From Octopus vulgaris (lineage: Eukaryota): DNA of 64,000 nucleotides. The notes under the pieces were generated by a model. That model made no database searches. It was not told the origin of the DNA and saw only the letters and a program-made list of their open reading frames with translations. The position numbers and the translations under genes were made by a program. The stretch is from positions 7,440,001 through 7,504,000 of the forward strand of contig OX597838.1 of NCBI GenBank assembly GCA_951406725.2. The letters are read 5' to 3'. Shown piece after piece: positions 3,145-49,475 of the stretch (within the stretch, counting starts at the first letter, position 1; each line of letters starts with the position of its first letter).

Positions 3145-3178
<34 letters not shown>

Positions 3179-3181
<3 letters not shown>

Positions 3182-3400
3182 CTCTTACTCTTTTACTCTT
3201 TTATTTGTTTCAGTCATCTGACTGCGGCCATGCTGGAGCACCGCCTTAAATCGAGCAACTCGACCCCGGGACTTATTCTTTTGTAAGCCCAGTACTTATT
3301 CTATCGGTCTCTTTTGCCGAACCGCTAAGTGACGGGGACATAAACACACCAGCATCGGTTGTCAAGCAATGTCAGGGGGACAAACAAGACACACAAACAT

Positions 3401-3435
<35 letters not shown>

Positions 3436-3544
3436 CATATATACGACGGCCCGAGACTATAGCAGAAGACACTTGCCCAAGGTGCCATGCAGTGGGACTG
3501 AACCCGGAACCATGTGGTTCGTAAGCAAGCTACTTACCACACAG

Positions 3545-3547
<3 letters not shown>
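3179..3547 (-). mobile_element. SINE family A
   Basis: High similarity to 23776-24146. Confidence 0.85.
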
Positions 3548-3598
<51 letters not shown>

Positions 3599-7632: not shown

Positions 7633-7678
<46 letters not shown>

Positions 7679-7679
<1 letters not shown>

Positions 7680-7861
7680 GGCGCAGGAGTGGCTATAGAC
7701 GGGAGTGGCTGTGTGGTAAGTAGCTTGCTTACCAACCACATGGTTCCGGGTTCAGTCCCACTGCGTGGCACCTTGGGTAAGTGTCTTGTACTATAGCCTC
7801 AGGCCGACAAAAGGCGGTGCTCCAGCATGGCCGCAGTCAAATGACTGAAGCAAGTAAAAGA

Positions 7862-7863
<2 letters not shown>
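7679..7863 (+). mobile_element. SINE family A, internally deleted
   Basis: Head ggcgcaggagtggct...gggttcagtccc joined to tail ggtgctccagcatggccgcagtcaaatgactgaa. Confidence 0.85.
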
Positions 7864-7930
<67 letters not shown>

Positions 7931-9944: not shown

Positions 9945-10100
9945 TCGCTTAATTGCGCCCAGGTCGACTTTGCCTTTCCTCTTTTCGGGGCCGATAAAAC
10001 AAGTACCAGTTACGCATTGGCGTCGATGCAATCTACTCAGCCCACCCCCCACCTCCCTCAAGCTCCCCTCGTGGCAAAATCTTGAAACAGGAATTATTAT
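9945..10100 (+). mobile_element. SINE family B, 3' part (further fragments near 3670-3800, 13315-13510, 14170-14460, 18935-19020)
   Basis: aggtcgactttgcctttcctcttttcggggccgataaaacaagtaccagttacgcattgg. Confidence 0.7.
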
Positions 10101-10782: not shown

Positions 10783-12497
10783 GTATATTTTGTGCTACGT
10801 GTCCAGTTAAAAATAGTGACTTCGCTAATCCCTCCAGATTAAACATATGTCTACTATTTTGGCTTAATCTATTCACTTTACCATTTTCAATATTTCGAAA
10901 CATTATTCTATAATTTTGCGTTGGTGTCTTGTTGCTAAATGGTGTAGAAATTATATTTATTTTGTTTCTGTCACTTCACAAATCTGTCTTCCATTCCTGA
11001 AGGATTAACATAATTTCACAATCTTCTGAGAGCGAATAGGAATAAATTCTAATTAAGAACTGCGATTTATGCTACGGATGTTTATCGGAATAGGCAATGA
11101 GTCAGAAATAAGTGACAGAGCGAATATAATTGGCAGTTGCTCTCAAAAGCATCTGACGCTTCGGAGAGATACTTCTTCAGGATATGAATAAAGGAAATAA
11201 AAGATATGAACTAGAGTTTTACACGCTGTATATTTGACAAATTAGCTTCGGCTGATAGTACTTTTTTTATCGATTTCTTTAGACGAGCCCCTACGTTAGG
11301 GGGACGTAAACACAGCACCACCGGTTGTTACGCGGGGGCGTGACAAAGATAGATGCAAAGCACACACATACACACACACAGTAAAATTTTATCTCATGAA
11401 AAATTATTTTATGCAAGGTCATTTTCCTTTATCAAGTCGGGGGTGGGGGTCCGCGAAACCTCGAAATAATCGGAGATGGTCCGTAAGAAGAAATTTTGAG
11501 GAACCAAGGCCATAGCCATTGGATATTTAAAAAACTAGTTTTATAGAAACATAGTTCAAAATACCTATTTTGTTTTTCACACATTCACTTGAAAGAATCT
11601 TAGTTTTTCTTTTTTGCAATACATACCTATACATAGACCTAAAGCAAATTTTTTTCAGGGGCATTTACAATACTGCTGTAGATCCCTAACTTACTATTTT
11701 GTTGCCAAAAATCTTATATGAACGCTCAGAGGCTATATAGACCTTCATGGGCCTTATAGAACTGGGTGGGATCCACTAGTGTGGTGAGACAAACAGGGTC
11801 TAATTTTATTGCACGGTAATAATAATGGTAGAACAAGAGAGAATTCAATCTCTATGTCGAAGTAAGAATGTAATATATAATAAAATTTAAATCAAACATT
11901 CATTTTAATTTCCCTGCGTTAGAAAATCAGCAGAGGGGCTGATGAGAGAGATACCGATCGCAATCCTTATTTATCAGAGTGTCCAGTGATTTTGTAATAT
12001 ATGTTTTAATCCCCAATTTCCGATCTCCACGTTTAAGCTTGTTTAATACATTTATCCTTGTAACCAACTAGAAAACCTTTTTGTATTCCTACTTAAATCT
12101 TGTTTCCTGTTTAAGGTGTGAGGATGAGTTGTTTCTCGTGGTTGCAACGAGTAGTAAACTTTGTTATGGATATGTGTCCTATGCATGTGAGTATATTGGT
12201 GATGTCAGCCACTTCCTAGCATTTGAGGAATCTACTCACCAATTCAATAAAATAACTTTCAGCATCTTTTTGAAAGAAGGGACGTTTGGAACAAGAAAGA
12301 ACCACTACAATTATGCGCCTTTAGGACTCTGAAAAACATGGTTGCATTCAATAATGACCAATACCAGCTATTGAAACGGAAAACGAGAAGAATTCAAGCC
12401 AATAAATTCTTCTTGAAACGTTCATTCGACCACAATATGCAATAAGTTATTACGAAGAACTTCATCAAACCGAACCAGAAAATGGTTATAGCCTTCT

Positions 12498-12846
12498 ATT
12501 CTTTACTTGTTTTAGTCATTTGACTGCGGCCATGCCGAAGCACCTATTTTAGTCGCAGAAATCAACTCCAGGACTATTACTTATTCTATCGGTCTCTTTT
12601 GCAGAACTGCCAAGTTACGGAAACGAGGACGCAAACACACAAGCGATTGTGGGACACCAACAGAGACACACAAATATACATATATACACGAAGGGCTTGT
12701 TTCAGTTTCTGTCTACCAAATCCACTCATAAGGTCCGCTCGAAGCTATAGCAGAAGACACTTGACCAAGGTGCCACGCAGTGGGACTTGACTCGGAACCA
12801 TATGGTTGGGAAGCAAATTTCTTACCACACAGCCATGCCTGCGCCT
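12498..12846 (-). mobile_element. SINE family A
   Basis: Similar to the other copies along its whole length. Confidence 0.85.
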
Positions 12847-13869
12847 AAGGAAAACAAATACTGGAAACTTTTATAAGATAATCTATATTTTCATGACAAA
12901 TATAGTATCATAAGAGACATTAGGTGGAAATTTTAGAGGAAGAATTTAAGATTAGTATAAAATACAGAATGAATCCATTCTTTATCAAATACAAACTATA
13001 TTTATGTCTTAGATAGAAACACTTAATACAGATCAATAATTACCAATAATTTTAAAATATCATGTTATATATTTTAATTATGGTGTATTTTATTTATGGA
13101 CGTCTAATGATATATTATTATATTCATCGCTATATGACAAAGCTGTCAAATTAAATTAAACGATAATTTATATGTAAAAAAGATATCTAAGAATATATAT
13201 ATGTATCGTTCGCCTCTTTGCTTCAGCAATATAATATCTCTTGGTTTATTTTTAGGTTCGGAAAGAGAGGCGCAGGTTATTTATTACTACTGTATTATCT
13301 TGTAGCATCTGGAACGTCTTTGTTAGCAGACTCGCCATGAAGTCGGGGAAAAAAATGTTTAATACGTTTTGCCTTCTGAATCCAGATTCCGCCGAGGTAG
13401 ATTTCACCTATTATCCTTTCGGAATCTCTGAAATTAGTACCAGATGAGCATTGGGCAAGATTTTATCGACTATCCCCCCAATCCCCACTACAACTATGGC
13501 CTTTGCGTCAAGTTTTTACACCATTTTCTGAAAGATTATTTCCACCTGAAAACCAAAATTTTACTCTGTTAATTTCGAAGTCGTTGATTCGCAAATTATT
13601 TAATATAATTACACGAAGGACCATAATCCATATTTGCGGAGAAATACTATTTTGCTTTATAATTTTGTTTCTGGAGAAAATACTATTATCCGAAACGTCA
13701 GAGCGATTTATTCTCAATAAGGTATTATTATGTAATTAGTACTTCTCTATTTGTTTAAATATTCTTTAAATCTGGTGTTATCATCGAACACTAGCAGGCA
13801 ATTCTTCACGTTTATGGTTGAGTGAATTTATACATGTATTTTCACGTACATATACATACATATATATGC

Positions 13870-15186: not shown

Positions 15187-17163
15187 GTTGGAATTTTTCC
15201 TGTAGTTTACGTGGTCAGTTTTTGAGGTGTTGCTTTAACGATTGAAACATGGTGCTTTCGCTTCCAGGAGCAGACGAAGCGTTGCGTACTGGAACAAAAC
15301 ATTTCATTTCACGTTCCTCAGCCTTCATTTCAACATTTGACCTTATGGGATACCATACAACTGTACGTGAAATGCGGAATTTGTGGAGGTGGAGGGACCT
15401 AACTCACGGCATGAATATTTGATCACTATAAACCAATCCTCAGCTACCCCGTCACCTGCCGTCTACAACTAGTGTGTCCACCAGGTATTTGCTACATACA
15501 CATAAATACATATATATATATATATATATATACCTAAATATATATATATATATATATACATATATATACTCACACAAGCTCACAGACACGCACACACACA
15601 CACAGTTTTGGTGTGCATGTGTGTGCTCATGCGTTTTAAATTCACTCCACTGTAAAATTAACTTCAGGACATTGTGCTTCAATATTTATAATCTCACTTT
15701 GAAATTTATCTTCATTACTAAAAACGTGCGACGCATATTTCTATTACTAAGTTGGTTGATATGCACAGAGCCCCGTTTCATACTGTTGGACGCCCCCAAA
15801 TAATCTTACTCCTTCAGTCGTTACAGAGCGACATCCACGGTTGTACTTGCAATCATGTATTATTATTTTTCTATTTTAAAGGGCGGCGAGTTGGCAGAAA
15901 TGTTATCGTGCCTGGAAAATGCGTAAAGATATTTCTTCAGTGTACACACACTAAGTTCAAATTCCACCGATTTCGACTTTTCCCTTCATCTTTTGGGGTC
16001 GATAAATTAAGTACCAGTTGAGTACTGGGGATCTATGTAATCGAATATGCCCCCACGCCCAATTTCAGACCTTGTGCCTATTATAGAAAGAATTATTATA
16101 TATGTATCTTAAAGGTCAGCGAGCTGGCTGAGTCGTTAGCGCGTCGGGCAAGATGCTTAACAATATTTCGTCGTCTGCACATTCTGAGATCAAATTCTGC
16201 CGAGTTCGATTCTGCCCTTCATCGTTTCGGGATCGATAAAATACTTATCAGTGGACTGGGGGCGACGTAATTGACTATGCCTCTCCCCCAAATTTCAGGT
16301 CATCTTCTTATAGTGGAAAAGGATTAATTCTTTACCTTACTTAAAATGTTACAGCGCACGTTTTTATCGGCCTGTTAGAATGGCGATTCTTTGCAAATTC
16401 AACCTTGATATGTCCTGGCAGATTCAGGTGCAAATATGTTAATCGCTGTTGTGTATGCCACAGGAGAACACCTCTTCCCATTTTACATTGACAAAACCCT
16501 CGGCTTATTGGCGCAGTGGATTCAGGGATTCCTCATGTTGTATTTTGTGTTGTGCCTTGTCAGCATACTATCCTTCGAATATTTTGCTATGCAGGGCGAA
16601 TTGTACAAAGGACAAATTCACGATTATTTTACAAGTTTTTCATAGCTAGCATAACAGTATACAACTCCTTTGTTTCTGTACATCATCTTTTTAGATCCCT
16701 TCTTTTTGTCCCTTCTAGTTGGAATAAGGTCATAGTCTACTGAGAAAGAAATACATTCTGTTTCATGTCAAGTGACTTGACGAAGAACATTATCCGAAAC
16801 GTTCCAGGCTACATTATTTTTCTCGCTTTGTCAAGTATTCGACCAGGAAATGTAGAATGTTATTGACGCTTATACATTGTGTTAGAGGTGAAGAGTTAAT
16901 TAAAATGTCGAATAAATTTTATCGTTGGAATTTTTCCTGTAGTTTACGTGGTCAGTTTTTGAGGTGTTGCTTTAACGATTGAAACATTGATATTTTCAAC
17001 ATTGTTTCAACATTTGACCTTATGGGATACCATACAACTGTACGTGAAATTTTTGTGGAGGTGGAGGGACTAACTCACGGCATGAATATTTGATCACATA
17101 AACCAATCCTGAACCTGCCGTCTAAACTAGTGTGTCCACCAGGTATTTGCTACATACACATAA

Positions 17164-17203
<40 letters not shown>

Positions 17204-18586
17204 AAATATATATATATATATACATATATATACTCACACAAGCTCACAGACACGCACACACACACACAGTTTTTGGTGTGCATGTGTGTGCTCATGCGTT
17301 TTAAATTCACTCCACTGTAAAATTAACTTCAGGACATTGTGCTTCAATATTTATAATCTCACTTTGAAATTTATCTTCATTACTAAAGACGTGCGACGCA
17401 TATTTCTATTACTAAGTTGATATGCACAGAGCCCCGTTTCATACTGTTGGACGCCCCAAAATAATCTTACTCCTTCAGTCGTTACAGAGCGACATCCACG
17501 GTTGTACTTGCAATCATGTATTATTATTTTTCTATTTTAAAGGGCGGCGAGTTGGCAGAAATGTTATCGTGCCTGGAAAATGCGTAAAGATATTTCTTCA
17601 GTGTACACACACTAAGTTCAAATTCCACCGATTTCGACTTTTCCCTTCATCTTTTGGGGTCGATAAATTAAGTACCAGTTGAGTACTGGGGATCTATGTA
17701 ATCGAATATGCCCCCACGCCCAATTTCAGACCTTGTGGCTATTATAGAAAGAATTATTATATATGTATGTTAAAGGTCAGCGAGCTGGCTGAGTCGTTAG
17801 CGCGTCGGGCAAGATGCTTAACAATATTTCGTCGTCTGCACATTCTGAGATCAAATTCTGCCGAGTTCGATTCTGCCCTTCATCGTTTCGGGATCGATAA
17901 AATACTTATCAGTGGACTGGGGGCGACGTAATTGACTATGCCTCTCCCCCAAATTTCAGGTCATCTTCTTATAGTGGAAAAGGATTAATTCTTTACCTTA
18001 CTTAAAATGTTACAGCGCACGTTTTTATCGGCCTGTTAGAATGGCGATTCTTTGCAAATTCAACCTTGATATGTCCTGGCAGATTCAGGTGCAAATATGT
18101 TAATCGCTGTTGTGTATGCCACAGGAGAACACCTCTTCCCATTTTACATTGACAAAACCCTCGGCTTATTGGCGCAGTGGATTCAGGGATTCCTCATGTT
18201 GTATTTTGTGTTGTGCCTTGTCAGCATACTATCCTTCGAATATTTTTCTATGCAGGGCGAATTGTACAAAGGACAAATCACGATTATTTTACAAGTTTTT
18301 CATAGCTAGCATAACAGTATACAACTCCTTTATTTCTGTACATCATCTTTTTAGATCCCTTCTTTTTGTCCCTTCTAGTTGGGATAAGGTCATAGTCTAC
18401 TGAGAAAGAAATACATTCTGTTTCATGTCAAGTGACTTGACGAAGAACATTATCCGAAACGTTTCAGGCTACATTATTTTTCTCGCTTTGTCAAGTATTC
18501 GACCAGGAAATGTAGAATGTTATTGACGCTTATACATTGTGTTAGAGGTGAAGAGTTAATTAAAATGTCGAATAAATTTTATCGTT
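15187..18586. repeat. Tandem duplication of ~1.7 kb (15187-16926 and 16924-18586)
   Basis: Near-identical copies with GTT microhomology at the junction. The second copy has several small deletions at its 5' end. Confidence 0.95.
15881..16330 (+). mobile_element. Two tandem copies of tRNA-derived SINE family B (Nin/Deu-domain-like core); repeated at ~17542-17990
   Basis: Head ggcggcgagttggcagaa...gttcaaattcc, then cttcatcttttggggtcgataaattaagtaccag, which resembles the conserved Deu/Nin SINE domain. Confidence 0.75.
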
Positions 18587-18803: not shown

Positions 18804-19024
18804 TTTAGTATTAGTATTATTATTAAAGTAATGGGAAACAATTCCTAACATCGGGCTACAACGAGTATCATTATATGCTAAGAGCCTTCCCATGTACCCT
18901 AGCTGTACCTAATGATACTGTTGCGTTATTGTGTTTGTTCAATTTCCGCCGAGGTCAACTTTGCCTTTCATCCTTTCGGGTTTGATAAACTAAATACCAG
19001 TGAAACACTGGAGTCAATGTACAT

Positions 19025-20909: not shown

Positions 20910-20925
20910 CTATATATATATATAT

Positions 20926-21292
20926 AGTAAATAATTAACAACGATATCATGGTATTAGTTAATTACGGCCATTTCAGGCGGCTCTACTTGATCGAAATAT
21001 GCAAGAATTACATGAGTTTGAGAAAATACCACCATCCTCGGATGCTTAATATAGGTTTTCAACATAGAGAATACGCTATTATAATTTTTAGCAAATATTT
21101 CATCTGAAGTAGCTCTGGTAAAATATTTGCTAAAAATTATAATGGATTATCCTGTATGGTGAAAACTTATATTATGCATCCGAAAACGGCGGTATTTTTA
21201 AATTGATATAATGCTTGCAGTGTTCGATTAAATGTACCCGCCTGAAACGCGCGTAATGCACAGATACCTTGACATCCTTGTTACTTATTTGC

Positions 21293-21295
<3 letters not shown>
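20926..21295. repeat. ~370-bp imperfect palindrome (foldback) between two (TA)n tracts
   Basis: Arms pair, e.g. attataatttttagcaaatattt / aaatatttgctaaaaattataat and tttcaggcgg / ccgcctgaaa. Centre near 21110. Confidence 0.85.
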
Positions 21296-21344
<49 letters not shown>

Positions 21345-23430: not shown

Positions 23431-23775
23431 AGATATATAGATAGATAGATATGTATGTATGTATGTATATGTGTATATACATGTGTGGTTTTTAAGTGTG
23501 TGGTTGTTTGTGTGCGCGAGAGATATGCGCGGGTTTATGCACTCTGAATATGTATTTTTGCACATTCTTCAACTCTCAGTACATGGACAATGTTTTTGCT
23601 TCTCTTGCTAAATATCAAATGTTACGAAAATGGAAAATATATACTATTTTGCATTCATACGTTCTACTTAGAGTTTTATTTTATTTTATTTTATAATTTT
23701 ATAATTTTCTTTCTTAAACTATGTTTAGTAAAATAATATTTTAGCTTGAAGGTGTTTTATTAACCGACGCTATAT

Positions 23776-24146
23776 ACTCTTACTCTTTTACTCTTTTACT
23801 TGTTTCAGTCATTTGACTGCGGCCATGCTGGAGCACCACCTTTTAGTACTTATTCTATCGGTCTCTTTTTGCCGAACCGCTAAGTGACGGGGACCTAAAC
23901 ACACCAGCATCGGTTGTCAAGCAATGCTAGAGGGACAAACACAGACACACAAACACACGCATACATATATATATACATATATACGACAGGCTTCTTTCAG
24001 TTTCCGTCTACCAAATCCACTCACAAGGCATTGGTCGGCCCGGGGCTATAGCAGAAGACACTTGCCAAAGATGCCACGCAGTGGGACTGAACCCGCAACC
24101 GTGTGGTTGGTTAGCAAGCTACTTACCACACAGCCACTCCTGCGCC
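23776..24146 (-). mobile_element. tRNA-derived SINE family A, near full length
   Basis: Minus strand starts GGCGCAGGAGTGGCTGTGTGGTAAG...GGGTTCAGTCCC (A/B-box-like). Internal (TA)/(TG) microsatellite. 3' tail aagtaaaagagtaaaagag. At least 8 copies in the window. Confidence 0.85.
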
Positions 24147-25255
24147 TATGCAGACATGGACATAATAAATACGGGTATACTGGAAGCAATTTAAGATGAT
24201 GTAACACAGTAATATCCAGTTCAAACTGGTAATTCTTCACCATTTATAGTCCTCCGCAGTGTTAGCATTTGTTTGACGTTCGATCCCAACTAGGCCTTTT
24301 GCTTGTTTTAATAGATTCTACACGTGTGCCCTTCCATTCAAAGTCTAGATTCTAGACAATAATACCGCCCTTTTCTCGGGAATTAAACTTTAGAGAAATC
24401 CTGTTTCTGAGATTATATCCCCTTCTCAAGTTCAAATAGCCTTAATTACTTAATTACTAAGTCACAATATAATCTAGAGGTAGAATTAATTTAGATAAAT
24501 AAGTGCGTGCCATCGGCCCTTTTGAGGTATTTCTTTCAGATCATTTTTGTTTAAATTACTGAAATCACTTAGGCATTAATACATTCCTATTCTTTTTCTA
24601 TATAAGTCTTGGTTCCTTTCCTAATAGAGACGGCGTGGAACACTTGTCGTGCTAAGGGCGGCTTTTGAGCCAAAAACATTTGTCCAAGACTTTCCTAAGA
24701 TTCTCCATTTACGTAACGGCATGTGAACTTCCGAAGATTTTTGCTTAATATTATCTGCCCGCTTCAATAAGCGCTGGTCTCAATTGCCACTAGGTAAGAT
24801 TTGTTACATTCTCTTGGAGCCGAGATAATTGCAACTACGCAAGAAAATTTGTAGTATGGTGCTTGATATAGAGGTACCCATCTTTAAATGTGCATGTATA
24901 TATATATATATTCAAACATACGCACATACTTAAACCATTATCAAATCTCACAGCTCCCATAAACACTATTTTTTTAGATCTGCTACTACCTACCGATCCT
25001 TCACAAATGAAGAGAGAGAGAGAGAGAAAGAGAGGGAACAGGAAAATATCCTACCTAGTTGAGGACTATGGAAATATAGACAAAATATTTCATTTAATTT
25101 TGTCATCAATTTAATTGCTTTTCTTCTTAATTAATATTCACCTTTCTTTTACTCTGAGTTGAAAAGTTCGAAAAGCACGAAACCGGTACTAACCATTGCA
25201 AAACGTATTTCATGATAAAATTAGTTTAGCATTTTCTACCTGGTTTTATTTTCCT

Positions 25256-26239: not shown

Positions 26240-27112
26240 ATATACATCATAATTGTGTATTATTGTATACAGAAAATATATAAATATATGTATGTATGTG
26301 TGCGTGCGTGCATGTATATATGTGTGTATGTATGTATATATGTATGCTAGCCTCTATGTATGTATACAGGTTTTTATATGTAACTACGAATGCATTTGTA
26401 CATATGCGCTTTTTGTGACCGTAACCTTTTAAGTACTTGAAATTTTTCTCACAGAGCATTTTTGTTTTCTAATATGCTCAAAAATGTTTACAGAAATATC
26501 CATGGAATACTTTTTTTTTGGTCCAATGAATAAATATCAAATGATCCTAAAAGACTGTGAAGATTTAGAAGTTTCTATACTCTACGTCTAGTATTGGCGT
26601 AAAGAAATTATTTCATATAAACAATATTTATGATTGAAGACTTAAGACGATGTCGCAAATGTTTACATTGATAAATATATGTGTATATATATATATGAAT
26701 AAATGCAAGAATGGAGTCGAACAAAGATGTTAACAAAATTCCTTTACTCGCGACAAATGTTTCTGCACATAAACCCGGAGTTTCTACCCTTGGACAGGTC
26801 GCTTCAACCGTGTTTCTGACGTGAATTCGCTGCCCTGGTTTATATATATAGGTTGAAGTTGCTGTTAATATGTGCATTTGAAAATTATTCTACAGCTTTT
26901 TATACACACTCGTATCGTAATACTTTGGCATACGTAACGAACGATATACATACATTCATAAAAACGTATACATGTGAAGGTACAAGTAACGGACCTTTTG
27001 CTCGGCCTCCAGAAATCCGGATATGCTTCGCATCACGGTGTAATGTGATGCACCTTTACTGAAGAAAAAAAAAAGAAACTCGTTTGTAAGTTCGTTAATC
27101 TACATATGTTCT

Positions 27113-27549
27113 TCTATTCTTATATTTGTTTCAGTCATTAGACTGCGACCTTGCTGGAGCACCGCCTTTTAGTCGAGCAAATCGACTCCAGGACTTAATC
27201 TTTGGAAGCATATATTTTTTCTATCGGTGTCTCTTGCCAAACGGCTAAGCTATGGGAATGGAAACCCACCGGCATCGGTTGTCAAGCGATGTTGGGGGAC
27301 AAACCCATACATACAAACAGTTACACACACACAAACATATACACACACACACGCTTATATATAAACACATACGTATATACATAAACGACGAGCTTCTTTC
27401 AGTTTCCTTCTACCAAATCCACTCACAAGGCATTGGTCGGCCCGAGGCTATAGTAGAAGACGCTTGCCCAAGATTCTCCGCAGTGGAACTGAACCCGGAG
27501 CCATGTGGTTGGTAGGCAGGCCACTTACCACACAGCCACTCCTGCACCT
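27113..27549 (-). mobile_element. SINE family A, full length, diverged
   Basis: Similar to the other copies along its whole length. Confidence 0.85.
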
Positions 27550-28040
27550 ATGGAAAATAGGTTTGCCCAACGTTAAAAATCATTTTGTTCTTTACCTTTT
27601 TACGTTGACCAATGGTGGTGCTCCAGCATGACCGTAGCCGCATGGCTCAAATGAATAACAGGATAAAAGAATACTTTGTTCTAGAAGTGTATTAATTAGT
27701 ACCTGTTAAATGGAATTAATTTAATTACCTGTACCTGTTACGTGAAATCATTTTCTTTACCTTTCTTCATTTAATTTTCATCCTATAAACGTTAAACTTT
27801 ACATCTTCGCACATTATTTTCAAATTTAAGAATTTTAAATTAATTAATATATTAGCAAATAATGTTTCTTTAGAAGTGTATTAACTTCAGTCTGATGATA
27901 ATATGATTTCTCTCTTTACTTTTCATAGATTAATTTATACTTTAAATAAAAATGTTTATTCTATCTCCATATATATAGAGAGGCAGACATATAGATTGAT
28001 AGATAGATTGACAGATAGATAGATAGATAGATAGATTGAC

Positions 28041-30369: not shown

Positions 30370-30504
30370 TTAGGGAAACGTTGTGTTAACATCGAACAAG
30401 AAGAGAACAAATATCTGTCGAATGTAAATAATGTACATAATTCCTCATCTCTTAAATGTAGAACTGTACAGTGGAAAATGAACTCAGAATATAAAGACAA
30501 ACGA

Positions 30505-30990
30505 AATGCCTATTTCTTTATTACCCAGAAGGGGTTAAACACAGACGGACAAACAAGGACAGACAAAGTGATTAAATCGATTATATCGACCCCAGTGCGT
30601 AACTGGTACTTATTTAATCGACCCCGAAATAATGAAAGGCAAAGTCGACCTCGGGGGAATTTGAACTCACGACGTAACGGCAGACGAAATACCGCTACGC
30701 ATTTTGCCCGGCGTGCTAACGTTTCTGCCAGCTCGCCGCCTTACGATAGACGAAATACTGTTAAACATTGTGCCCGGGATGCTATTCAAAAAGCCTGAAA
30801 TATTTTGAATAAGGAAGGAGCTATTCGATCACATAGACCCCAGTGCTTAAATACTCAGCATTACATCGACCCCCAAGAAGATGAAATGCAAAATTTGACA
30901 TCTATGGCATTTGAACTCAAAACATAAAGATAGACAGAATGCAAGTAAGCATTTTACCGAGTGTGTTAAAAATTCTGCCACTTCGCCGCT
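30505..30990 (-). mobile_element. Two SINE family B copies
   Basis: ctgccagctcgccgcc head (reverse complement) and actggtacttatttaatcgaccccgaaa core. Confidence 0.8.
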
Positions 30991-31840: not shown

Positions 31841-31931
<91 letters not shown>

Positions 31932-31934
<3 letters not shown>

Positions 31935-32006
31935 TTTTAAATATTTGTTGTGCAAGATTTTTATTGGCTAACCTGGCAAAATGACCATTCCGAAATATAA
32001 CAATAT
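31932..32006. mobile_element. 75-bp miniature relic of the same PLE family (inverted tail + pLTR end) within (TA)n
   Basis: 31932-31962 is the reverse complement of ~39567-39598. 31958-32006 matches ~39494-39542 with 2 mismatches. (TA)n lies on both sides. Confidence 0.85.
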
Positions 32007-32324
32007 ATATATATATATAATATACAAAAAGGGTGAAATATAATTAAGTTAATAAAATTAATAAATTTCACCTAGTAGTTTTATCGGTATGGAAAAGACC
32101 ATATTTGGTAAGGATTATATTAATTATAATAAAGGGTTAATTGCAACAAGTTGCTCAAAACCACATACCTAGATTCTAGATTCTCTGTTTCTAATCTAGA
32201 AGCGATTTCGTCTATAATTAATCCAAATATGCTGGGATTTCGTTATTTTCTTTCTCTTTACCATATACGGGTTGCAAATTCTGTTTGTTTGTGGAGACTT
32301 TTTTACTAGTAGGAGAAATGGTGA

Positions 32325-36394: not shown

Positions 36395-36470
<76 letters not shown>

Positions 36471-36476
<6 letters not shown>

Positions 36477-36960
36477 ATATTTCGGAATGGTCATATTGCC
36501 AGTTTAGCCAATAAAAACACACGCACTATATATTTGGTGTTATTTTGCTTCAGTGATATTTATTTTTTACATTAATCTTAATCTTATTTCGGCCAAAGTT
36601 CTTTCGTCACACTCCTGTGACCGCATCAGTGGTCCTTTGTTTTCTTCTCACTTACTTGTGTCTCTCCTTACTAACCGTCAGCCATTTTGTATTTCTATTG
36701 TATGTCTTCATTTGCGCATGCTTATATCTCTATGTGCGTCTATGTTTATTTAGTGTGTGGGGGGGGATGTCTGTAATATTTGTATCTTCTGGTTATATAC
36801 ATTCTTGTAATTTGTATTTTGTTTTTGTTGTTGCTTTTGTTCTAATTTTGTTCATGTGTTTACATCCACCCATTATTATCATTACATATGCTTGTATGTA
36901 TAACAACAATATTAGTAATATTAGTAATAATAATAATAAATCTAATCGAGAAAAAAAAAA
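36471..36960 (-). repeat. Inverted pseudo-LTR of the PLE
   Basis: Reverse complement of ~39058-39540 with small slippage differences (9-bp attagtaat duplication, one fewer ttg, G-run length). Joins the ORF copy at an A-run with AA microhomology. Confidence 0.9.
36591..36635 (-). ncRNA. Third (inverted) copy of the pLTR hammerhead-like motif
   Basis: Reverse complement of 39376-39420. Confidence 0.6.
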
Positions 36961-38862
36961 TGATATCCCGGCACTGTATGGACTTCGCAAGGACCATAAA
37001 GGTTTTACTGACCCTATAGCAGGACCACCAACAAGACCAGTCTGTGGAGCGAATATCGCTAGCAATTACAGAATCTCCTACTTCCTCTCAATGATCATAC
37101 GCCCTATAATCAGGATGTCACCTGATGTATGTGACAGCACAGAAGATCTCCTAAGCAGGATCAGTGACTGTAACAAAACTTGTGACTTGACAGGATGTAT
37201 AGTAGGTAGCATGGATGTGGTATCCCTATACCCATCGATTGACGTAGATTTTGCAGTGGAGAAGTGCGTGGAGATGATCAACGAGAGCCAGGTGGAGTTC
37301 TGTAATGTCGACACAGAAGAACTGGGCCTCCTACTTAGACTGACATATAATAGTGAATACTTAGATAAACATAATCTTAGTAGTTTCTGCCCCAGTAGAT
37401 GTTTAAGAGGTAGACCGCCTACAATTACTTCTATGGCTAGGAAGACACATATAGAAAGATGGCGCGGATGGACCAGAGCCATACGGAGCCCCGCAAATGT
37501 CCATCAGGTAAAGAAAATGATCGCACATGCACTAGGAGCTAGTATAAGAGTTACCCTAAAAGGCCACACATTTAAATTTAATAATAAAATATATGCCCAG
37601 GACGAGGGGGCAGCCATCGGTGTTAGTATCGCTGGTGATGTGGCCAACCTCTTCATGGTATGGTGGGACAGAAGGCTTAAAGAATGCCTACTGCAGAAAT
37701 CCGTACTCGTAAACATGTACTCTCGCTATGTTGATGATATCAATATAGTAGTAAAGGCACCCCCACAAGAGAGTACGGTTGATATAGTAATAGAAACTAA
37801 TACTATGGAGAGCATCCAGCAAATAGCTAACTCCATCCACCAGAGTATTAAGGTCACAATAGACTACCCCACTAAACACCCCAACCATAGACTACCAGTA
37901 CTAGACACTGAACTCTGGCTAGAAATTGTGAAAAATAAAACCCAAATCCTTCATTCATACTATGCAAAACCTATGGCCTCAAAATACCTGATCCACCGGA
38001 ACTCAGCCATTGCGGGCAATGCCAAATTCAATATTTTGATGGCAGACCTCGTCAGAATAATGAGAAATGTGTCACGCATGTGCGAGCCTACAGAATTAAA
38101 GAGACACATACAGTATTTCATTCACCGCATGCAGTTCTCAGGTTACAGCCATAAAGAAAGGATCAGAGTATACAAAGGAGCCATGAAGAAATTTGATAAT
38201 ATATTATGTAATGATAGGAATGGGATTTGCCCACTCTATAGGAACAAGTCATGGAACACTATAGAAAGGACAAAAAGAAAATAAGGAAGGCCAACTCTTG
38301 GTATGATAGCCATAAATACCAGAGTGTCATGTTCGTTGACACCACCCCTGGAGGTGAACTAGCGTACCGCTTTAGAAGGACCCTAGATAAACTTAAACTA
38401 AGAATTAAGGTTGTTGAAAAGCCAGGCAACCCTATCAGATCTATAATTGGTAGAACCTATCCTTTTAGTAGAACTCTCTGTACGGATAACTATTGCACTG
38501 TATGTAGATTTAGCCCACAAACGAACTGTAAAGCCAGAAATGTGGTCTATAGTATAAGATGTATAGAGGGACGATGCAGTAACAAGACAGTAACATACGT
38601 AGGGGAAACTGCAAGAAGCATTGGTGAGCGGGTGAATGAACATTGGAGACAACTCAAGGAAGGTAAAAGCTCATCGATTCTGTACCAACACGCCGAACAA
38701 GAACACGGGGGATCAATCAATAACATAGAGATTAAGATATTGTCCACACATAGAACAGATGCAACAATTAGACAAATTACAGAAGCTACACATATAATAG
38801 AAAATAAACCTAGCCTGAATAGAAAACTAGAATGGAGCAATAGCGCACACCACAACATATGA
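36959..38862 (+). pseudogene. 5'-truncated upstream copy of the PLE ORF (RT + GIY-YIG) with a 1-nt frameshift near 38275
   Basis: Matches 41539-43443 except for one A missing in an A-run (ggacaaaaagaaa vs ggacaaaaaagaaa). This splits it into ORFs 36617-38284 and 38251-38862. Confidence 0.9.
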
Positions 38863-39601
38863 CAATAGTGGATCCTGCAAACATAATAAATACACAGGTA
38901 ATTAAAGAAATAGAAATGAATATCTATGTGTATGTATATGTGTATATATATGTATATGTATATGTGTATATATGTGTGTATATATGTATATATATATATG
39001 TATATGTATGTGTATGTATATATATATATATATATGTATATGTATATTCTTTTTTTTTTTTTTTTTTCTCGATTAGATTTATTATTATTATTACTAATAT
39101 TGTTGTTATACATACAAGCATATGTAATGATAATAATGGGTGGATGTAAACACATGAACAAAATTAGAACAAAAGCAACAACAACAAAAACAAAATACAA
39201 ATTACAAGAATGTATATAACCAGAAGATACAAATATTACAGACATCCCCCCCACACACTAAATAAACATAGACGCACATAGAGATATAAGCATGCGCAAA
39301 TGAAGACATACAATAGAAATACAAAATGGCTGACGGTTAGTAAGGAGAGACACAAGTAAGTGAGAAGAAAACAAAGGACCACTGATGCGGTCACAGGAGT
39401 GTGACGAAAGAACTTTGGCCGAAATAAGATTAAGATTAATGTAAAAAATAAATATCACTGAAGCAAAATAACACCAAATATATAGTGCGTGTGTTTTTAT
39501 TGGCTAAACTGGCAATATGACCATTCCGAAATATAACAATATCTGTTTCAACACACGACTTCACATAAAAAATCTTGCACAACAAATATTTAAACGTACT
39601 A
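38863..39601 (+). repeat. Internal PLE 3'UTR/pLTR; also the 5' leader of the intact ORF
   Basis: Direct repeat of 43444-44184. Overlaps the first ~28 codons of the ORF. Confidence 0.9.
39376..39420 (+). ncRNA. Variant minimal type-I hammerhead ribozyme motif in PLE pLTR
   Basis: GGACCA-CTGATGC-G-GTCACA(GGAG)TGTGAC-GAAA-G-AA-C-TT-TGGCC. Stem I GG(A)CCA/TGGCC, 6-bp stem II, core CUGAUGC instead of CUGANGA. Confidence 0.6.
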
Positions 39602-42600
39602 ACGTGAGCCACAGCCAGGCTTGCAAGATGCTGAAGAACACTATATTTTGTTGCCTAAAGAAAACTGTGACAACGCAACAGCTTCGTTTTATAAAACAAT
39701 GTGTCTCGTCCAGGATATGTATCAACAAGGTCACAGCCAACGTTAAACGGCTTGACCTCACTAACGGACAAGCGGAAAGACTAAAAAGGACGCTAATGGT
39801 AAATATTAGAAATAGAATATACAGAGAGCTGAGCGAACAAGAGAAGCGTAAACGTATATTTTTAAAAGAAATTAAAAGTATCACCACACGAAAGGAGAAA
39901 ACCTTAATAATGGATATAATATATGAAGAAAACAGACATGTAATACACCAATGCAATATCCATTTTAAGAGGAAGTTATCGTGGTTGAAACAGAAACGTC
40001 AATATGAGCTCGCAAAGGAAGAAAAGCAGAAGTATCCAGATACAATAAATGGAATTATTATGGAAGATGTGCTACTACCAGAAGAGTTCAATAAAGACAA
40101 TGAAGCGAACATCTATGGGGGAGTAACAACGGACCCAGATGAAATATCGATACTTCAACTACCACCAAAGTATGCAGTGTATAGTAAAGTGAATACCATC
40201 AAATGCCTGTCCGAGATTGAAAAGTCGTTCACAAAAATACGTTGGAATTTAAATAGATACTATGACAACAACACTTGCGACAACAACAACAACGCGAAAA
40301 ACACTAACCGCAGCAACAACAACACAAACAATAATGACCGCAACAATAACAACCGTAGCAACAAAAGCAACACGAACCCTAACAGCGGCAACAACAACAA
40401 CAACACGAACCCTAACAGCGACAACAACAATAACAATAGAAAAAATGTATGCATAGACACAAACAATAGATACAAAAACAAAAACACAAACAGAGAGAGA
40501 AAAATCGTATACAACAGCAACAACAACAACAATTATAGGGAGAACCGACACACAAACACACACACAGATAGCCATAGTCACAAAAACACGAATAAAAGTT
40601 GTGTCATAGGGGTCACGATGGAGAATAAAGTTGAATGCAACAGGTTCCTTGGACAGGGAGTCAGCGGACTTGAAACAGATAACAATATTCATAGGAACAA
40701 AAATAACGACCGCAACAAGGGGATTGACAGGGACCAACAGACAGACATAAAACCCAACACTAATATAAACAACACATACACCAGAAACAGGAACAATGAA
40801 TATATCACTAGCGATGATAGTAATAATGGCAATGGTAGGAATAAAGGTAATAACAATAATAGTGGTAGTAGTAGTGGTGATGGTAACAGTAGAAGTAGTA
40901 ATGAGGATAGTAGTGATAGTTGTGGTGGTAATAGGAATACTAGTAGTAGTAGTAGTAGTGGTAATGGTGATAATAATAATAGGAAGGCTGATGTTGGAAA
41001 CAGTAACGATAATGAAGATAACCCTAGAGAGACCATTGACATGTATACCCATCCCTTTGACACTCAATTCTTCAACGTATGCGACAAAACTTACTGCATG
41101 AACCGAATTTATCCAACAACATTACCCTTCAACAAAAGGGTATACATCCCAAGACGTACTAATGACCACATGGAAGCACAGTTCACTATAGCTAGGACCA
41201 AACTTAGACAGATTTTAGGTTTATACATTAAGAGACAGAGACAGAATAAGACAGATGCCCAACAACTAGGGATTAAACCTGCATGTGGCCTACAGAAGCT
41301 CATTCAGCGCACGAGGAACGGAGAGGTGATATGCCTTCCCACGGATAAGTCAGGCAGGATGTCAATAGACAGCTTACCGAACTACATCCAGGCAATGCAA
41401 CCTCATATCGCCAATACAAAAGTAACAACTGTACAGGCGCATGAGGAGAGAGAAAAGGTCCTCAATGCCCACATGATGATGTGGACAATTGTTCTGGGAC
41501 CTCAGAAACGTACTGCAAAGAATTTCCAAGCCTGGAACAATGATATCCCGGCACTGTATGGACTTCGCAAGGACCATAAAGGTTTTACTGACCCTATAGC
41601 AGGACCACCAACAAGACCAGTCTGTGGAGCGAATATCGCTAGCAATTACAGAATCTCCTACTTCCTCTCAATGATCATACGCCCTATAATCAGGATGTCA
41701 CCTGATGTATGTGACAGCACAGAAGATCTCCTAAGCAGGATCAGTGACTGTAACAAAACTTGTGACTTGACAGGATGTATAGTAGGTAGCATGGATGTGG
41801 TATCCCTATACCCATCGATTGACGTAGATTTTGCAGTGGAGAAGTGCGTGGAGATGATCAACGAGAGCCAGGTGGAGTTCTGTAATGTCGACACAGAAGA
41901 ACTGGGCCTCCTACTTAGACTGACATATAATAGTGAATACTTAGATAAACATAATCTTAGTAGTTTCTGCCCCAGTAGATGTTTAAGAGGTAGACCGCCT
42001 ACAATTACTTCTATGGCTAGGAAGACACATATAGAAAGATGGCGCGGATGGACCAGAGCCATACGGAGCCCCGCAAATGTCCATCAGGTAAAGAAAATGA
42101 TCGCACATGCACTAGGAGCTAGTATAAGAGTTACCCTAAAAGGCCACACATTTAAATTTAATAATAAAATATATGCCCAGGACGAGGGGGCAGCCATCGG
42201 TGTTAGTATCGCTGGTGATGTGGCCAACCTCTTCATGGTATGGTGGGACAGAAGGCTTAAAGAATGCCTACTGCAGAAATCCGTACTCGTAAACATGTAC
42301 TCTCGCTATGTTGATGATATCAATATAGTAGTAAAGGCACCCCCACAAGAGAGTACGGTTGATATAGTAATAGAAACTAATACTATGGAGAGCATCCAGC
42401 AAATAGCTAACTCCATCCACCAGAGTATTAAGGTCACAATAGACTACCCCACTAAACACCCCAACCATAGACTACCAGTACTAGACACTGAACTCTGGCT
42501 AGAAATTGTGAAAAATAAAACCCAAATCCTTCATTCATACTATGCAAAACCTATGGCCTCAAAATACCTGATCCACCGGAACTCAGCCATTGCGGGCAAT

Positions 42601-43443
42601 GCCAAATTCAATATTTTGATGGCAGACCTCGTCAGAATAATGAGAAATGTGTCACGCATGTGCGAGCCTACAGAATTAAAGAGACACATACAGTATTTCA
42701 TTCACCGCATGCAGTTCTCAGGTTACAGCCATAAAGAAAGGATCAGAGTATACAAAGGAGCCATGAAGAAATTTGATAATATATTATGTAATGATAGGAA
42801 TGGGATTTGCCCACTCTATAGGAACAAGTCATGGAACACTATAGAAAGGACAAAAAAGAAAATAAGGAAGGCCAACTCTTGGTATGATAGCCATAAATAC
42901 CAGAGTGTCATGTTCGTTGACACCACCCCTGGAGGTGAACTAGCGTACCGCTTTAGAAGGACCCTAGATAAACTTAAACTAAGAATTAAGGTTGTTGAAA
43001 AGCCAGGCAACCCTATCAGATCTATAATTGGTAGAACCTATCCTTTTAGTAGAACTCTCTGTACGGATAACTATTGCACTGTATGTAGATTTAGCCCACA
43101 AACGAACTGTAAAGCCAGAAATGTGGTCTATAGTATAAGATGTATAGAGGGACGATGCAGTAACAAGACAGTAACATACGTAGGGGAAACTGCAAGAAGC
43201 ATTGGTGAGCGGGTGAATGAACATTGGAGACAACTCAAGGAAGGTAAAAGCTCATCGATTCTGTACCAACACGCCGAACAAGAACACGGGGGATCAATCA
43301 ATAACATAGAGATTAAGATATTGTCCACACATAGAACAGATGCAACAATTAGACAAATTACAGAAGCTACACATATAATAGAAAATAAACCTAGCCTGAA
43401 TAGAAAACTAGAATGGAGCAATAGCGCACACCACAACATATGA
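39517..43443 (+). CDS. PLE polyprotein, 1308 aa: basic N-terminus, Asn/Ser-rich low-complexity region, reverse transcriptase, Cys-rich linker, GIY-YIG endonuclease (Neptune/Nematis-like layout)
   Basis: Uninterrupted ORF. PTDKSG (DKG-type motif), [38 protein letters not shown] (42307-42318), LPVLDTEL. Linker [10 protein letters not shown]. Endonuclease [31 protein letters not shown]. Confidence 0.95.
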
Positions 43444-44184
43444 CAATAGTGGATCCTGCAAACATAATAAATACACAGGTAATTAAAGAAATAGAAATGA
43501 ATATCTATGTGTATGTATATGTGTATATATATGTATATGTATATGTGTATATATGTGTGTATATATGTATATATATATATGTATATGTATGTGTATGTAT
43601 ATATATATATATATATGTATATGTATATTCTTTTTTTTTTTTTTTTTTTTCTCGATTAGATTTATTATTATTATTACTAATATTGTTGTTATACATACAA
43701 GCATATGTAATGATAATAATGGGTGGATGTAAACACATGAACAAAATTAGAACAAAAGCAACAACAACAAAAACAAAATACAAATTACAAGAATGTATAT
43801 AACCAGAAGATACAAATATTACAGACATCCCCCCCACACACTAAATAAACATAGACGCACATAGAGATATAAGCATGCGCAAATGAAGACATACAATAGA
43901 AATACAAAATGGCTGACGGTTAGTAAGGAGAGACACAAGTAAGTGAGAAGAAAACAAAGGACCACTGATGCGGTCACAGGAGTGTGACGAAAGAACTTTG
44001 GCCGAAATAAGATTAAGATTAATGTAAAAAATAAATATCACTGAAGCAAAATAACACCAAATATATAGTGCGTGTGTTTTTATTGGCTAAACTGGCAATA
44101 TGACCATTCCGAAATATAACAATATCTGTTTCAACACACGACTTCACATAAAAAATCTTGCACAACAAATATTTAAACGTACTA
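43444..44184 (+). repeat. Terminal PLE 3'UTR/pLTR with ~60-nt tail
   Basis: Matches 38863-39601 apart from poly-T length. Ends at ...tttaaacgtact, then (TA)n. Confidence 0.9.
43959..44003 (+). ncRNA. Second copy of the pLTR hammerhead-like motif
   Basis: Identical to 39376-39420. Confidence 0.6.
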
Positions 44185-44203
44185 TATATATATATATATA
44201 TAT

Positions 44204-44558
44204 AAGTCAGGGAAGAAAACGGAGAAGATATTTAATTGACAAACATCAGTCAGACATATTTGTTAGTTACAATGATAGGAGTAAATAAATACAAGTCTAC
44301 TCTTACAGTTGTTTCTACTTTGGGAGGTGCAGCGTGATACAATTGACACATCATACAAAAATTATACAAAACTTGAATCCGAGTATGTATAATTTTTGTA
44401 ATACGTGTTGGGGTTGACTTTGGCATGCTGGACTCCAAAGCAGAAAAAACTGTAAGAGCAGAATTGTATTTATATATTTACTCTTATTACTGGAATTAAT
44501 AATTAGATCTTGCTGATGTTTGTCAATTAAGTATCGTCTCCAATTTGTTCCTTGCCTA
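44204..44558. repeat. ~350-bp imperfect palindrome (foldback) directly after the PLE's right (TA)n flank
   Basis: Arms pair: ttaattgacaaacatcag / ctgatgtttgtcaattaa, tcttacagtt / aactgtaaga, tacaaaaattataca / tgtataatttttgta. Centre near 44377. Confidence 0.85.
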
Positions 44559-44934
44559 ATAAATTCATATATGCGTATATATATACAATCAAAATAAGCA
44601 AGAAGGATATCCAAAGGTAGTGTAGTACAATCGTTTCATGCTACAGTTGCAGATATTGCTTCAATGCGAGACTGAACCAAAGTCTACAGAATTTGTAACC
44701 AAGCTTCTTTGTAACTCAGCCCCACCAGCACCAATCCAGAGAGAAGGAGTAAGGGAGAGAGAGAGACACGGAGACAGAGAGAGAGAGACACGGAGACAGA
44801 GAGAGACAGACAGACATATAGACAGAAGGATGATAGAAACATATAATTGAAAACACTCATGTTTTGGGGGAGACAAAAACAAATCGGGGTAAATGAAGTT
44901 GAATTTGTAACGAGTAGCATTTATTTAAAATATG

Positions 44935-45311
44935 TGGAGACAGAATGGCCCGGTGGTTAGTGCAGCGGACTCACGGTCGTGAGATAATTATTTCGATTCC
45001 CAGACCGGGCATTGTTAGTGTTTATTGAGCGAACATATCTAAAGTTCCACGAGGCTTCGGCAGGGGGTGGAGACGAATCATGCTGTTGTCTTTCACCACA
45101 ACTTTCACACTTCCTTCCTGTTTCTGTTCTACCTGTATTTCAAAGGGGTCAGCCTTGTCACACTCTGCGTCACGCTGAATCTCCCCCGAGCACCACGCTA
45201 AGGGTACACGCGTCAGCGGTATACTCAGCCACTTACAAGTTAATTTGACAAGCAGGCTGTTCCGTTGATCGGATCAACTGGAACTCTTGTCGTCCTAACC
45301 GATGGAGTGCC
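44935..45311 (+). mobile_element. tRNA-derived SINE family C/C'
   Basis: tggcccggtggttag...ttcgattcccagaccgggc head. 3' body (tacctgtatttcaaagg, agccttgtcacac, gatggagtgcca) is shared with 20661-20909. Confidence 0.75.
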
Positions 45312-47122: not shown

Positions 47123-47185
<63 letters not shown>

Positions 47186-47392
47186 TGTGTCTGTTTGTTC
47201 CCCCAACATCGCTTGACAACCGGTACTGGTGTGTTTACTTCACCGTAACTTAGTGGTTCGGCAATATAGATCGGTACAATAAGTACTAGGCACCCAATGA
47301 ACAAGTCCTTGGGATCGATGTGCTCGACTAAAGGCAGAGCTCCAGCATGGCCACAGTCAAATGACAGAAACAAGTAAAAGAGTAAAAAGAGT
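46882..47392 (+). mobile_element. SINE family A, 5'-truncated, with a ~160-bp insertion (46961-47122) inside its internal (TA)n
   Basis: gatttggtagacggaaactgaaagaagcccgtcg-(TA)n-[insert]-(TA)n(TG)n-cccccaacatcgcttgacaaccgg...aagtaaaagag. Confidence 0.8.
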
Positions 47393-47789
47393 AGATATGT
47401 AAGACATCATTTTTTATCGATGAATAACGGGGAGAGTGTTTTTGGACCATTTCTTCGTCTATTAAAGAGAAACACAATATTTTCTGTTTTATTCTTTACA
47501 CTTGGCAATAGAAATAAACTTCAGTATTTTGCTATTGTTTCCCGGTTAAGAAACTGCATTTTTTGTTTTTTATAGAACCTCTATTCGTATTACTGTAATT
47601 CACTTACCTGTTGATGAGTTACCTCGCAATGGACCGGTGTCTCGTTCAACGAGAATGTTGTAATCTCTGTCACGTAGGCATTTTGGAAACCGCGTAACCG
47701 TGGCTATGAGTCCTAACGCTCGGGGCAATAATGTCCAGACTTCCAGTAAATTTTTTTTTTAAATTTACTAGTGTCCCGATTACACCGAT

Positions 47790-48199
47790 TTCTTTACTAC
47801 TCACAAGGTGCTAAACAGAGAGGACAAACAAGGACAGACAAACGGATTAAGTCGATTACATTGACACCAGTGCGTAACTGGTACTTACTTTATCGACCCC
47901 GAAAGGATGAAAAGAAAAGTCGACATCGACAGAATTCGAACTCAGAACGTTACGGCAGACGAAATACCTATTTCTTTACTACCCACAAGGGGCTAAACAC
48001 AGAGAGGACAAACAAGGACAGACAAACGGATTAAGTCGATTACATTGACACCAGTGCGTAACTGGTACTTACTTTATCGACTTCGAAAGAATGAAAGGCA
48101 AAGTCGACATCGACAGAATTTGAATTGAGAACGTAACGGCAGACGAAATACGGCTACACATTTCGCCCGGCGTGCTAACGTTTCTGCCAGCTCGCCGCC
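47790..48199 (-). mobile_element. SINE family B with an internal ~180-bp tandem duplication
   Basis: 47790-47968 is repeated at 47969-48147. A single head at 48160-48199. Confidence 0.85.
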
Positions 48200-49475
48200 C
48201 GTCCCGATTTCACTTACACACACATAACATATGTATTTCCCAATGTATAAATTGCACCCTCGCATCAGACATGACCCTACGTGTTTGTGGAAAGAAAATT
48301 AAGATTTCTGAAAACGAATGTACTGTGTTATACATGCATACACTCATAATCATGCAATACGGTCGCATTAGACGCTGAGCAAATTTTTTTTATTACACTT
48401 AGAAATTTAGAAAACGTGTCTTAAACACCGGCATATACGAAATTGATTTAAATTGTTTTCTCTAAAAATAAACTCGTACAGATTTTGTAGAGACAAGTCT
48501 GAAAAAATATCTTTTAAAGCCTGATAGGATTTGAAACTTTAACGTATGTATTTAAATCATCTTCAGATGTCTTAATTATTTAGCTTTCGTATGAACGTAG
48601 AACGCAACACTAATAATGTATCACGTTTAAGTTGATAGAGTATAACACCAAATAATTAGGTCGCAGTTAATTTGTCGCTAATTAGCGACTTCATCAACTA
48701 GATTTTCCATTGAACTGTTATTAGAAAATTTGTTCCGGTGCTAAAGTGTTAACGACGAAAATATGTAATCAACAAGGTTTCAATGTCGTCACTAACAAAT
48801 CTGACAATTAAAAACAACTATAATTATCACGGTTTGATTACATATTTCACTCCTAACAATATGTTAACTTCTTGCCTTCATAACACGGGGATGTCGCGTA
48901 CAGTAGTAGACATAAATCTGCGGCCTTTATACATCGACAATCAGTTTCGATATCCGTTTAATACTATAAATTCTTTCGCTGCTTCTTCTGAATTCGTTCA
49001 TATATTACGAAAGACATCATCTGCCCTCGAACCAACTGGCGTCTTACAGTGAACTCGCTACATCACACAACACGCCTAGGATCTTGGGTGCCCTTACTCT
49101 GAAGGTGGGTTTCAATGGAAACTGTATCACAGAATGTGGCAGCATACAGGTATTGAGGAAGCATTGAAATGTAAGGATTTGAGGGCCACTTCAATTGCAT
49201 GAGGGACCTTCTTTGAAGAAAAATTTCTGCTGTTCGGTTCTTCCTGGAAATTCTGCTATATCAAAGTTCAATCTTATATTTCATATACAACAGGACAATA
49301 GGGTTGACAGAACGCGGAAAATCAATTAAGAAACAAGTAGGGACATGCCAACATGCCCACCACAAGTTACAGGTTCTCAGATTAAACTTAATCTAAAATA
49401 GAACTTCATAAAAAGTGAAATGAGTTTTAAACTGCTTACAGATGCGATCCAACATACATATATAAATTACACCCC

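Follow-up and report, generated by a model that had tools for sequence, protein, structure and literature searches.

A Penelope-like element and a 75-base relic of its family

The window, by which we mean the whole 64-kb stretch of Octopus vulgaris DNA that was analysed, contains a 7.7-kb Penelope-like element (PLE; 36469-44184) composed of an inverted arm, a 5'-truncated copy and a full unit ending at 44184. The full unit has an intact ORF (39517..43443, plus strand; 1308 aa from the first ATG), followed by the 3' UTR, the terminal pseudo-LTR (pLTR) and the tail (43444..44184, plus strand). We have designated two positions as site A (39538..39542, plus strand; ORF nt +22 to +26) and site B (39596..39601, plus strand; ORF nt +80 to +85), the interval between them being the tail of 56-60 nt. 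The inverted arm (36469..36960, minus strand) is a 5'-truncated pLTR that ends at site A; it is the reverse complement of 39058-39542, with 97.4% identity over 495 columns and three indels in simple repeats. The 5'-truncated upstream copy (36956-39601, plus strand) contains the ORF's 3' half (1 nt deleted at 38271), the 3' UTR and the pLTR, and overlaps the start of the full unit. It repeats 41536-44184 with 99.85% identity, forming the partial tandem that yields the pseudo-LTRs, and the terminal tail ends at site B in (TA)n. The inner junction joins positions ~2.1 kb apart on the unit, and a test of whether the inverted arm had its own template gave no significant result (3 vs. 0 indels in 484 bp, P = 0.25). 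Directly to the right of the element there is a MITE-like, imperfect palindrome of ~400 bp between TA tracts (44183-44585, 73% self-complementary).

A motif scan revealed a hammerhead-like core in the pLTR (39382..39409, plus strand), with a stem II that folds; the same core occurs at 43965 and, inverted, at 36629. Core and stem II carry one non-canonical base (z -0.98), position 9 being C here and the canonical A in many public contigs (39388 C>A). The Rfam search returned no hammerhead among 133 matches at E-values up to 5, all of them below gathering scores and mostly microsatellite artefacts. The available text of PMC6765202 and of bioRxiv 10.64898/2026.07.22.740005 offers context on hammerheads and pLTR-derived repeats only.

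To the left of the large element, inside (TA)n, lies a relic of 75 bases (31932-32006) made of two pieces of the neighbouring PLE placed head to head. It was found by blastn of the element pLTR and tail against the 64-kb window with the large element masked, a search that returned no other pLTR or tail fragment at E < 0.4 (next matches, E 0.41). The left arm (31932..31962, minus strand) corresponds to the last 31 nt of the tail (element 39568-39598; 30/31 identical, E 1e-8) and ends at site B, with its 3' end pointing left into (TA)n. The right arm (31958..32006, plus strand; element 39494-39542; 47/49 identical, E 2e-17) includes the start codon and ends at site A, with its 3' end pointing right into (TA)n. 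A T5 microhomology at 31958..31962 is assignable to either arm. The (TA)n target extends over 31888..31933 on the left, with (CA)n before it, and over 32003..32019 on the right. The unambiguous core of the relic is therefore 31934-32002, since the outermost 2 nt (left) and 4 nt (right) may just as well belong to the TA target; the test for a target-site duplication likewise returned (TA)n on both sides. The two recurrent ends of the family thus make up the relic, each of them facing outward into (TA)n; we read it as a head-to-head insertion of an octopus EN+ PLE that is 5'-truncated in both arms.

The element bases 39543-39567 are absent between the arms, which do not overlap and cannot pair; accordingly, the relic folds with only -2.8 kcal/mol. 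The B arm (39568-39598) lies wholly within the A-to-B interval. We found no terminal inverted repeats, the arms being different sequences with (TA)n-driven pairings only, and a reading of the relic as a MITE was rejected on these grounds. We have also rejected a chance match.

The large element has the same layout, with site A at one end and site B at the other, so that both window insertions share it (2/2); in both, an inverted 5'-truncated copy stands at the 5' end and the tail at one end only. For ends drawn uniformly from the 540-bp pLTR, two insertions would agree at both ends to within 3 nt with a probability of ~1.7e-4, a post hoc figure. These data bear on the original prediction, which had described the relic as two element ends in opposite orientation, joined at a T-run within (TA)n. 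The two arms and the T5 bear this description out. The claim that its termini are the same as those of the 7.7-kb PLE holds exactly for end A (39538-39542 in both) and approximately for end B: the relic stops no later than 39598, and the large element 1-3 nt further, at 39599-39601 (44182-44184).

The relic had also been considered independent of the large PLE, and its letters agree with this. At the equivalent of 39516 it has A, whereas all three neighbouring pLTR copies have T (3/3). A is the majority letter at 39516 in public contigs (1.09M of 1.91M summed depth in run X3 and 1.02M of 1.65M in run X5); the other two differences of the relic are not among the listed contig variants. Since A at 39516 is common in contigs and absent from the neighbour, the relic derives from another, older copy or subfamily, and a local derivative of the neighbour was rejected.

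The encoded protein and its clade

From stop to stop, the reading frame spans 1311 open codons, with the first in-frame ATG at 39517. The relative P0003 begins at an equivalent place, and an O. bimaculoides gene model has the same initial peptide. The ORF encodes, in order, an N-terminal domain, an Asn-rich insert, a TERT-like reverse transcriptase (RT), a CX4CxxC linker and, at the C terminus, a GIY-YIG endonuclease (EN) with CCHH residues. Pfam returned 0 families for the whole ORF protein; for its C-terminal 779 aa it returned RVT_1 (E 0.0015) and GIY-YIG (E 0.0024), both below curated cut-offs. Searching the PDB by sequence gave two weak RT matches, and the six best PDB matches of the predicted fold (pLDDT 82) were all telomerase RTs. 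The element has the single ORF with telomerase-like RT and GIY-YIG endonuclease that marks EN+ PLEs.

The linker reads C1185-x4-C1190-xx-C1193 in protein P0001, and its first two cysteines are invariant in 16/16 aligned sequences. So are C1212, C1217 and His 1239, 1255 and 1260, which represent the CCHH of the EN. On the strength of these motifs, the linker and CCHH criteria of PMC8557442 point to a family of Neptune/Nematis type. According to the accessible part of that source, Neptune/Nematis PLEs likewise have a C-terminal GIY-YIG domain with CCHH and an upstream CX2-5CxxC linker, for which a microsatellite bias has been hypothesised. The octopus ORF differs from them in its Asn-rich insert. 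This in-frame, Asn/Ser-rich stretch of ~265 aa (~40250-41110) lies upstream of the RT and is absent from the relative P0003. Rotifer Penelope elements are described with similar inserts at other positions (PMC3846280), the octopus insert being like them in kind and elsewhere in position.

Three other assignments were rejected. The Penelope/Poseidon clade does not agree with the presence of a linker Zn finger, the Hydra clade does not agree with the presence of CCHH residues and of a CX4CxxC rather than a CxCX5C linker, and Naiad/Chlamys elements would have the EN at the N terminus, whereas here it is C-terminal.

The protein search also revealed a cluster of 26 proteins that are ~99% identical to the RT start, the 15 rows listed being almost all O. 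vulgaris gene models. This degree of identity, with almost all listed members from O. vulgaris, indicates that the PLE family is young and multi-copy.

Sites A and B in public sequences

We have aligned four public runs (contigs of X3 and X5, raw reads of X21 and X22) to 39121-40020; what follows refers to the loose ends and joints that were listed (18 out of 413 and 15 out of 32, respectively). In run X3, 15 contigs leave the element at 39542 and 21 at 39598, both groups running into (TA)n. Sites A and B thus make up two of the six loose ends listed for this run, and only these two of the six had a (TA)n consensus. For X5, neither site was among the six loose ends listed, five loose ends at repeats having been dropped. 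The summed contig depth, which is no copy number, fell across 39600 from 105,474 to 2,815 (X3) and from 449,121 to 1,516 (X5). None of the raw reads of X21 aligned; X22 contributed 590. Most of these (528) had only 90-95% identity, and no X22 read entered the ORF beyond 39600. No start or end pile-ups were listed for the aligned runs over 39121-40020. At the protein level, the O. bimaculoides gene model P0153, which starts with the same residues, ceases to be similar around codon 27-28, the position of site B. Two fixed ends ~58 nt apart in the 5' end of the ORF had been predicted, and both were confirmed as ends that recur in X3 contigs and are followed by (TA)n. Counted from the ATG at 39517, they fall at ORF nt +22 to +26 and +82 to +85. 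Their spacing does not match the 30-40 bp that is typical of, although not defining for, a PLE tail.

At every end in the window, the element reads TA or ATAT, a coincidence that has P = 0.16 (2 nt) or P = 0.036 (4 nt) for a random position. This hints at short primer pairing at the window ends, judging from three positions.

Metagenome contigs were also searched. An exact pattern scan for the site A motif gave 0 matches, and of 170 candidate stretches for related loci 17 were confirmed, none of these loci having both ends. One of them, from a distant relative (L001), has an inverted arm with a hammerhead-like core joined to a truncated ORF (1-61 and 3126-3186), and another (L006) enters (TA)n ~220 nt past its ORF match.

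One X5 loose end was observed behind 39566 (11 contigs, agreement 0.55), in frame and with the same terminal motif 21 nt earlier. A sister subfamily with a ~36 nt tail, 21 nt shorter, is a possible source of it, and such a subfamily would explain the depth drop in 39571-39600. The search for a shorter-tail variant at the protein level found only P0153, which has the long form. A short sequence motif, and not distance, may define site B, given that the putative sister variant appears to arrive at this motif 21 nt (7 codons) sooner.

Two further patterns were seen in X22. Three reads join site B (39598) to site A (39538) with three letters between them; the orientation is not given, and the reads could represent a tail-to-tail pair or a duplicated tail. 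Besides, the stretch 39424-39502 is the only one covered ~500 reads deep, at 90-95% identity and with two recurring opposite-strand joints. The reads on it consist of an ~80-nt unit in tandem, 39424-39485 forward and then 39502-39482 reversed; a related octopus may have a satellite that arose from this pLTR.

Formation of the head-to-head insertions

The junctions of the two insertions were then compared with chance expectation. The relic junction has a 5 nt overlap, and random inverted pLTR junctions reach at least 5 nt with P = 0.008. At the inner junction of the large element, 2 nt are assignable to both arms, and at least 2 nt are expected by chance with P = 0.17. Based on these values, only the microhomology of the relic goes beyond chance. 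Opposite-strand joints made up 6 of the 15 listed (32 in all), and 3 of them come from contigs. The three contig joints, whose orientation is not stated, involve different position pairs and have 0 shared letters relative to the young reference, so that inner junctions vary while the ends are fixed. Neither window junction is palindromic. Joining by microhomology, as originally proposed, fits the relic and is not supported as a general rule by the other junctions. The large element has the A/B layout expected of a common model, and the overlap at its junction remains within chance.

The relic contains two inverted fragments with an internal deletion, bases 39543-39567 being missing between its arms, which is the pattern left by twin priming of L1. 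Its B arm lies inside the A-to-B interval, as twin priming on one RNA predicts (PMC2837659, accessible part). We are inclined to think that both (TA)n strands were nicked, that cDNAs were primed at B and at A and stopped early, and that they were joined at T5, by twin or dual priming. Under this scheme, the GIY-YIG domain would nick both strands of the (TA)n tract. One 3' end would prime cDNA at site B and stop after ~31 nt, the other would prime at site A and stop after ~49 nt, and the two cDNA ends would be joined at the T5/A5 run at insertion. The large element could result from the same event, with long arms and a tandem transcript.

The closest known system is PAc, a Poseidon element of Anolis carolinensis, in which the tail is delimited by two internal sites of RT initiation within the 5' end of the ORF (PMC11167929, in the sections available). 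By analogy with it, sites A and B may be internal RT start sites on a read-through pLTR-to-ORF RNA, and the octopus protein may nick and extend both target strands. PAc cuts and extends both strands. It shares an AT-rich target with the octopus element and has a hammerhead near the ORF start, where the octopus pLTR has the hammerhead-like core. It belongs, however, to Penelope/Poseidon, a clade without the linker Zn finger that the octopus PLE has. One of its start regions lies 111-118 nt into the ORF, as against the positions of A and B given above, and the octopus tail is 56-60 nt long as against 30-40 nt. The AC-rich stem-loop of the PAc sites was not seen at the octopus ones, where A+C is 0.62-0.67, as against 0.62 for the pLTR, and where local folding is weak. 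As far as the accessible text of the PAc study goes, start sites do not differ between strands, so that A and B need not be used on opposite strands. The same text does not explain inverted insertions, and the steps after initiation were not validated there. The hypothesis that each target strand uses one site, with end joining afterwards, would fit both window insertions (2/2); in the contigs, which are short, the two ends are unlinked.

The standard PLE layout combines a partial tandem with an inverted, 5'-truncated copy and has a tail of 30-40 bp on one side (PMC8557442, PMC3846280, PMC2377424, PMC8969392, as far as accessible); the large element follows it with a longer tail. For canonical EN+ PLEs, available parts of the first three sources describe head-to-head insertions as the most frequent and microsatellite targets as hiding target duplications. 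Compared with them, the relic has only 31 + 49 nt, non-overlapping arms, a non-palindromic junction and a longer tail. L1 twin or dual priming, as presented in the sections of PMC2837659 at hand, shares the two inverted fragments, the internal deletion, joining of 5' ends and often short microhomology. L1 starts at the poly(A) tail and at a variable internal site, and its insertions have target duplications, whereas in the octopus PLE both starts are fixed and internal and target duplications are not visible in (TA)n.

Birth of the relic at its present size has to be weighed against a later loss. A long head-to-head insertion could have undergone microhomology-mediated deletion of its palindromic centre, the T5 then being a repair scar and not an insertion junction; the sequence left behind would be the same. 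Such deletions are reported in PLE copies (PMC3846280, accessible part), the 5 nt exceed the microhomology at the other junctions seen, and a remaining B arm without complement in the A arm would be a stable end state for a palindrome. The relic is also older than its neighbour: it has 3 differences in 75 nt, of which 2 are not among the listed contig variants, and the direct copies of the large element have no substitution between them beyond the junction base. Yet both arms are short, not one alone. Besides, de novo insertions of a Chlamydomonas PLE pair have a median of 128 bp by 5' truncation alone (PMC9977147, in its accessible part), so that short births are ordinary; the same source records PLE insertions of very small size in microsatellites. 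On balance, we regard later deletion as unlikely, though to be taken seriously.

Inversion could instead have come from antisense self-priming, by fold-back, or the ends could have been set by endonuclease resolution in place of RT start. Self-priming was inferred for rotifer Penelope from palindromes at inverted junctions (PMC3846280), but the window junctions have none; the relic arms do not overlap and hardly fold, and the large junction joins positions too far apart on the unit, as given above. The attribution of the tail to EN-mediated resolution (PMC8557442) is opposed by later in vitro work that maps tail ends to RT starts (PMC11167929), each source being cited from its available text. 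Either process appears improbable here. A copy of a mobile, non-autonomous mini-element with a fixed inner junction would agree with the pLTR being far more abundant than the ORF in contigs, and one joint present in X3 as well as X5 likewise breaks at 39494. Nevertheless, there is one copy in 64 kb, the junction 39568/39494 is absent among the 15 of 32 joints listed, and the unit has neither terminal inverted repeats nor a hammerhead. As it is half antisense, its RNA would not present both sites. We give this origin very little credence.

Returning to priming at B and A, a broader proposal is that head-to-head PLE insertions in general arise by programmed twin priming, with B used on one strand and A on the other before end joining. 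Pairing of 2-4 nt between a nicked TA end and UA/AUAU at each site would help. We advance this tentatively, with somewhat more doubt than belief. If correct, it would explain an inverted pLTR with a tail at one end without antisense self-priming. The overall interpretation given originally thus stands for the fixed recurrent ends and the independence of the relic, and is weaker on use of one site per strand, on general microhomology and on short birth.

The two-site core idea is already published (PMC11167929), and the relic illustrates the known two-end signature of PLEs cleanly and in minimal form. What the octopus adds is that the two-site pattern, known from Poseidon, is also found in a clade that bears the linker and has a longer tail. 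In the literature covered, mostly outside subscription journals, we found no paper applying twin priming to PLEs, nor one proposing a separate site for each target strand with subsequent end joining. Recently active PLE families have been counted in O. vulgaris, the ends not being described in the accessible part (PMC13282606). The origin of inverted pLTRs with a tail on one side is contested between self-priming (PMC3846280) and endonuclease resolution (PMC8557442), as far as the sections available go. Fold-back by itself would hardly produce a relic that has both ends, arms without overlap and no palindrome. A single locus is not enough to establish the mechanism; the relic suggests a cheap genome-wide test, namely whether ends pair A with B, and octopus genomes, in which pLTR fragments of the family are seemingly very abundant, would allow a direct count.

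Other repeats were observed in the window. A near-identical tandem duplication occupies 15187-18586, with 15328-16926 repeated at 17005-18586 (97%) and 15187-15250 at 16924-16987 (100%). ARAGORN found no tRNA gene in the 64-kb window; the stretch at ~44925-45300 resembles by eye what we take to be a tRNA-derived SINE head. A dispersed SINE-like family of ~400 bp has at least seven diverged copies (70-90%), at 1044-1383, 3175-3577, 7659-7864, 12493-12854, 23771-24150, 27101-27557 and 47124-47401. A second dispersed family occurs at 30480-30750, 47784-48200, 15870-16044, 17531-17705, 9951-10037 and 18937-19021, and an imperfect palindromic element of ~400 bp (77% self-complementary) lies at 20911-21310.
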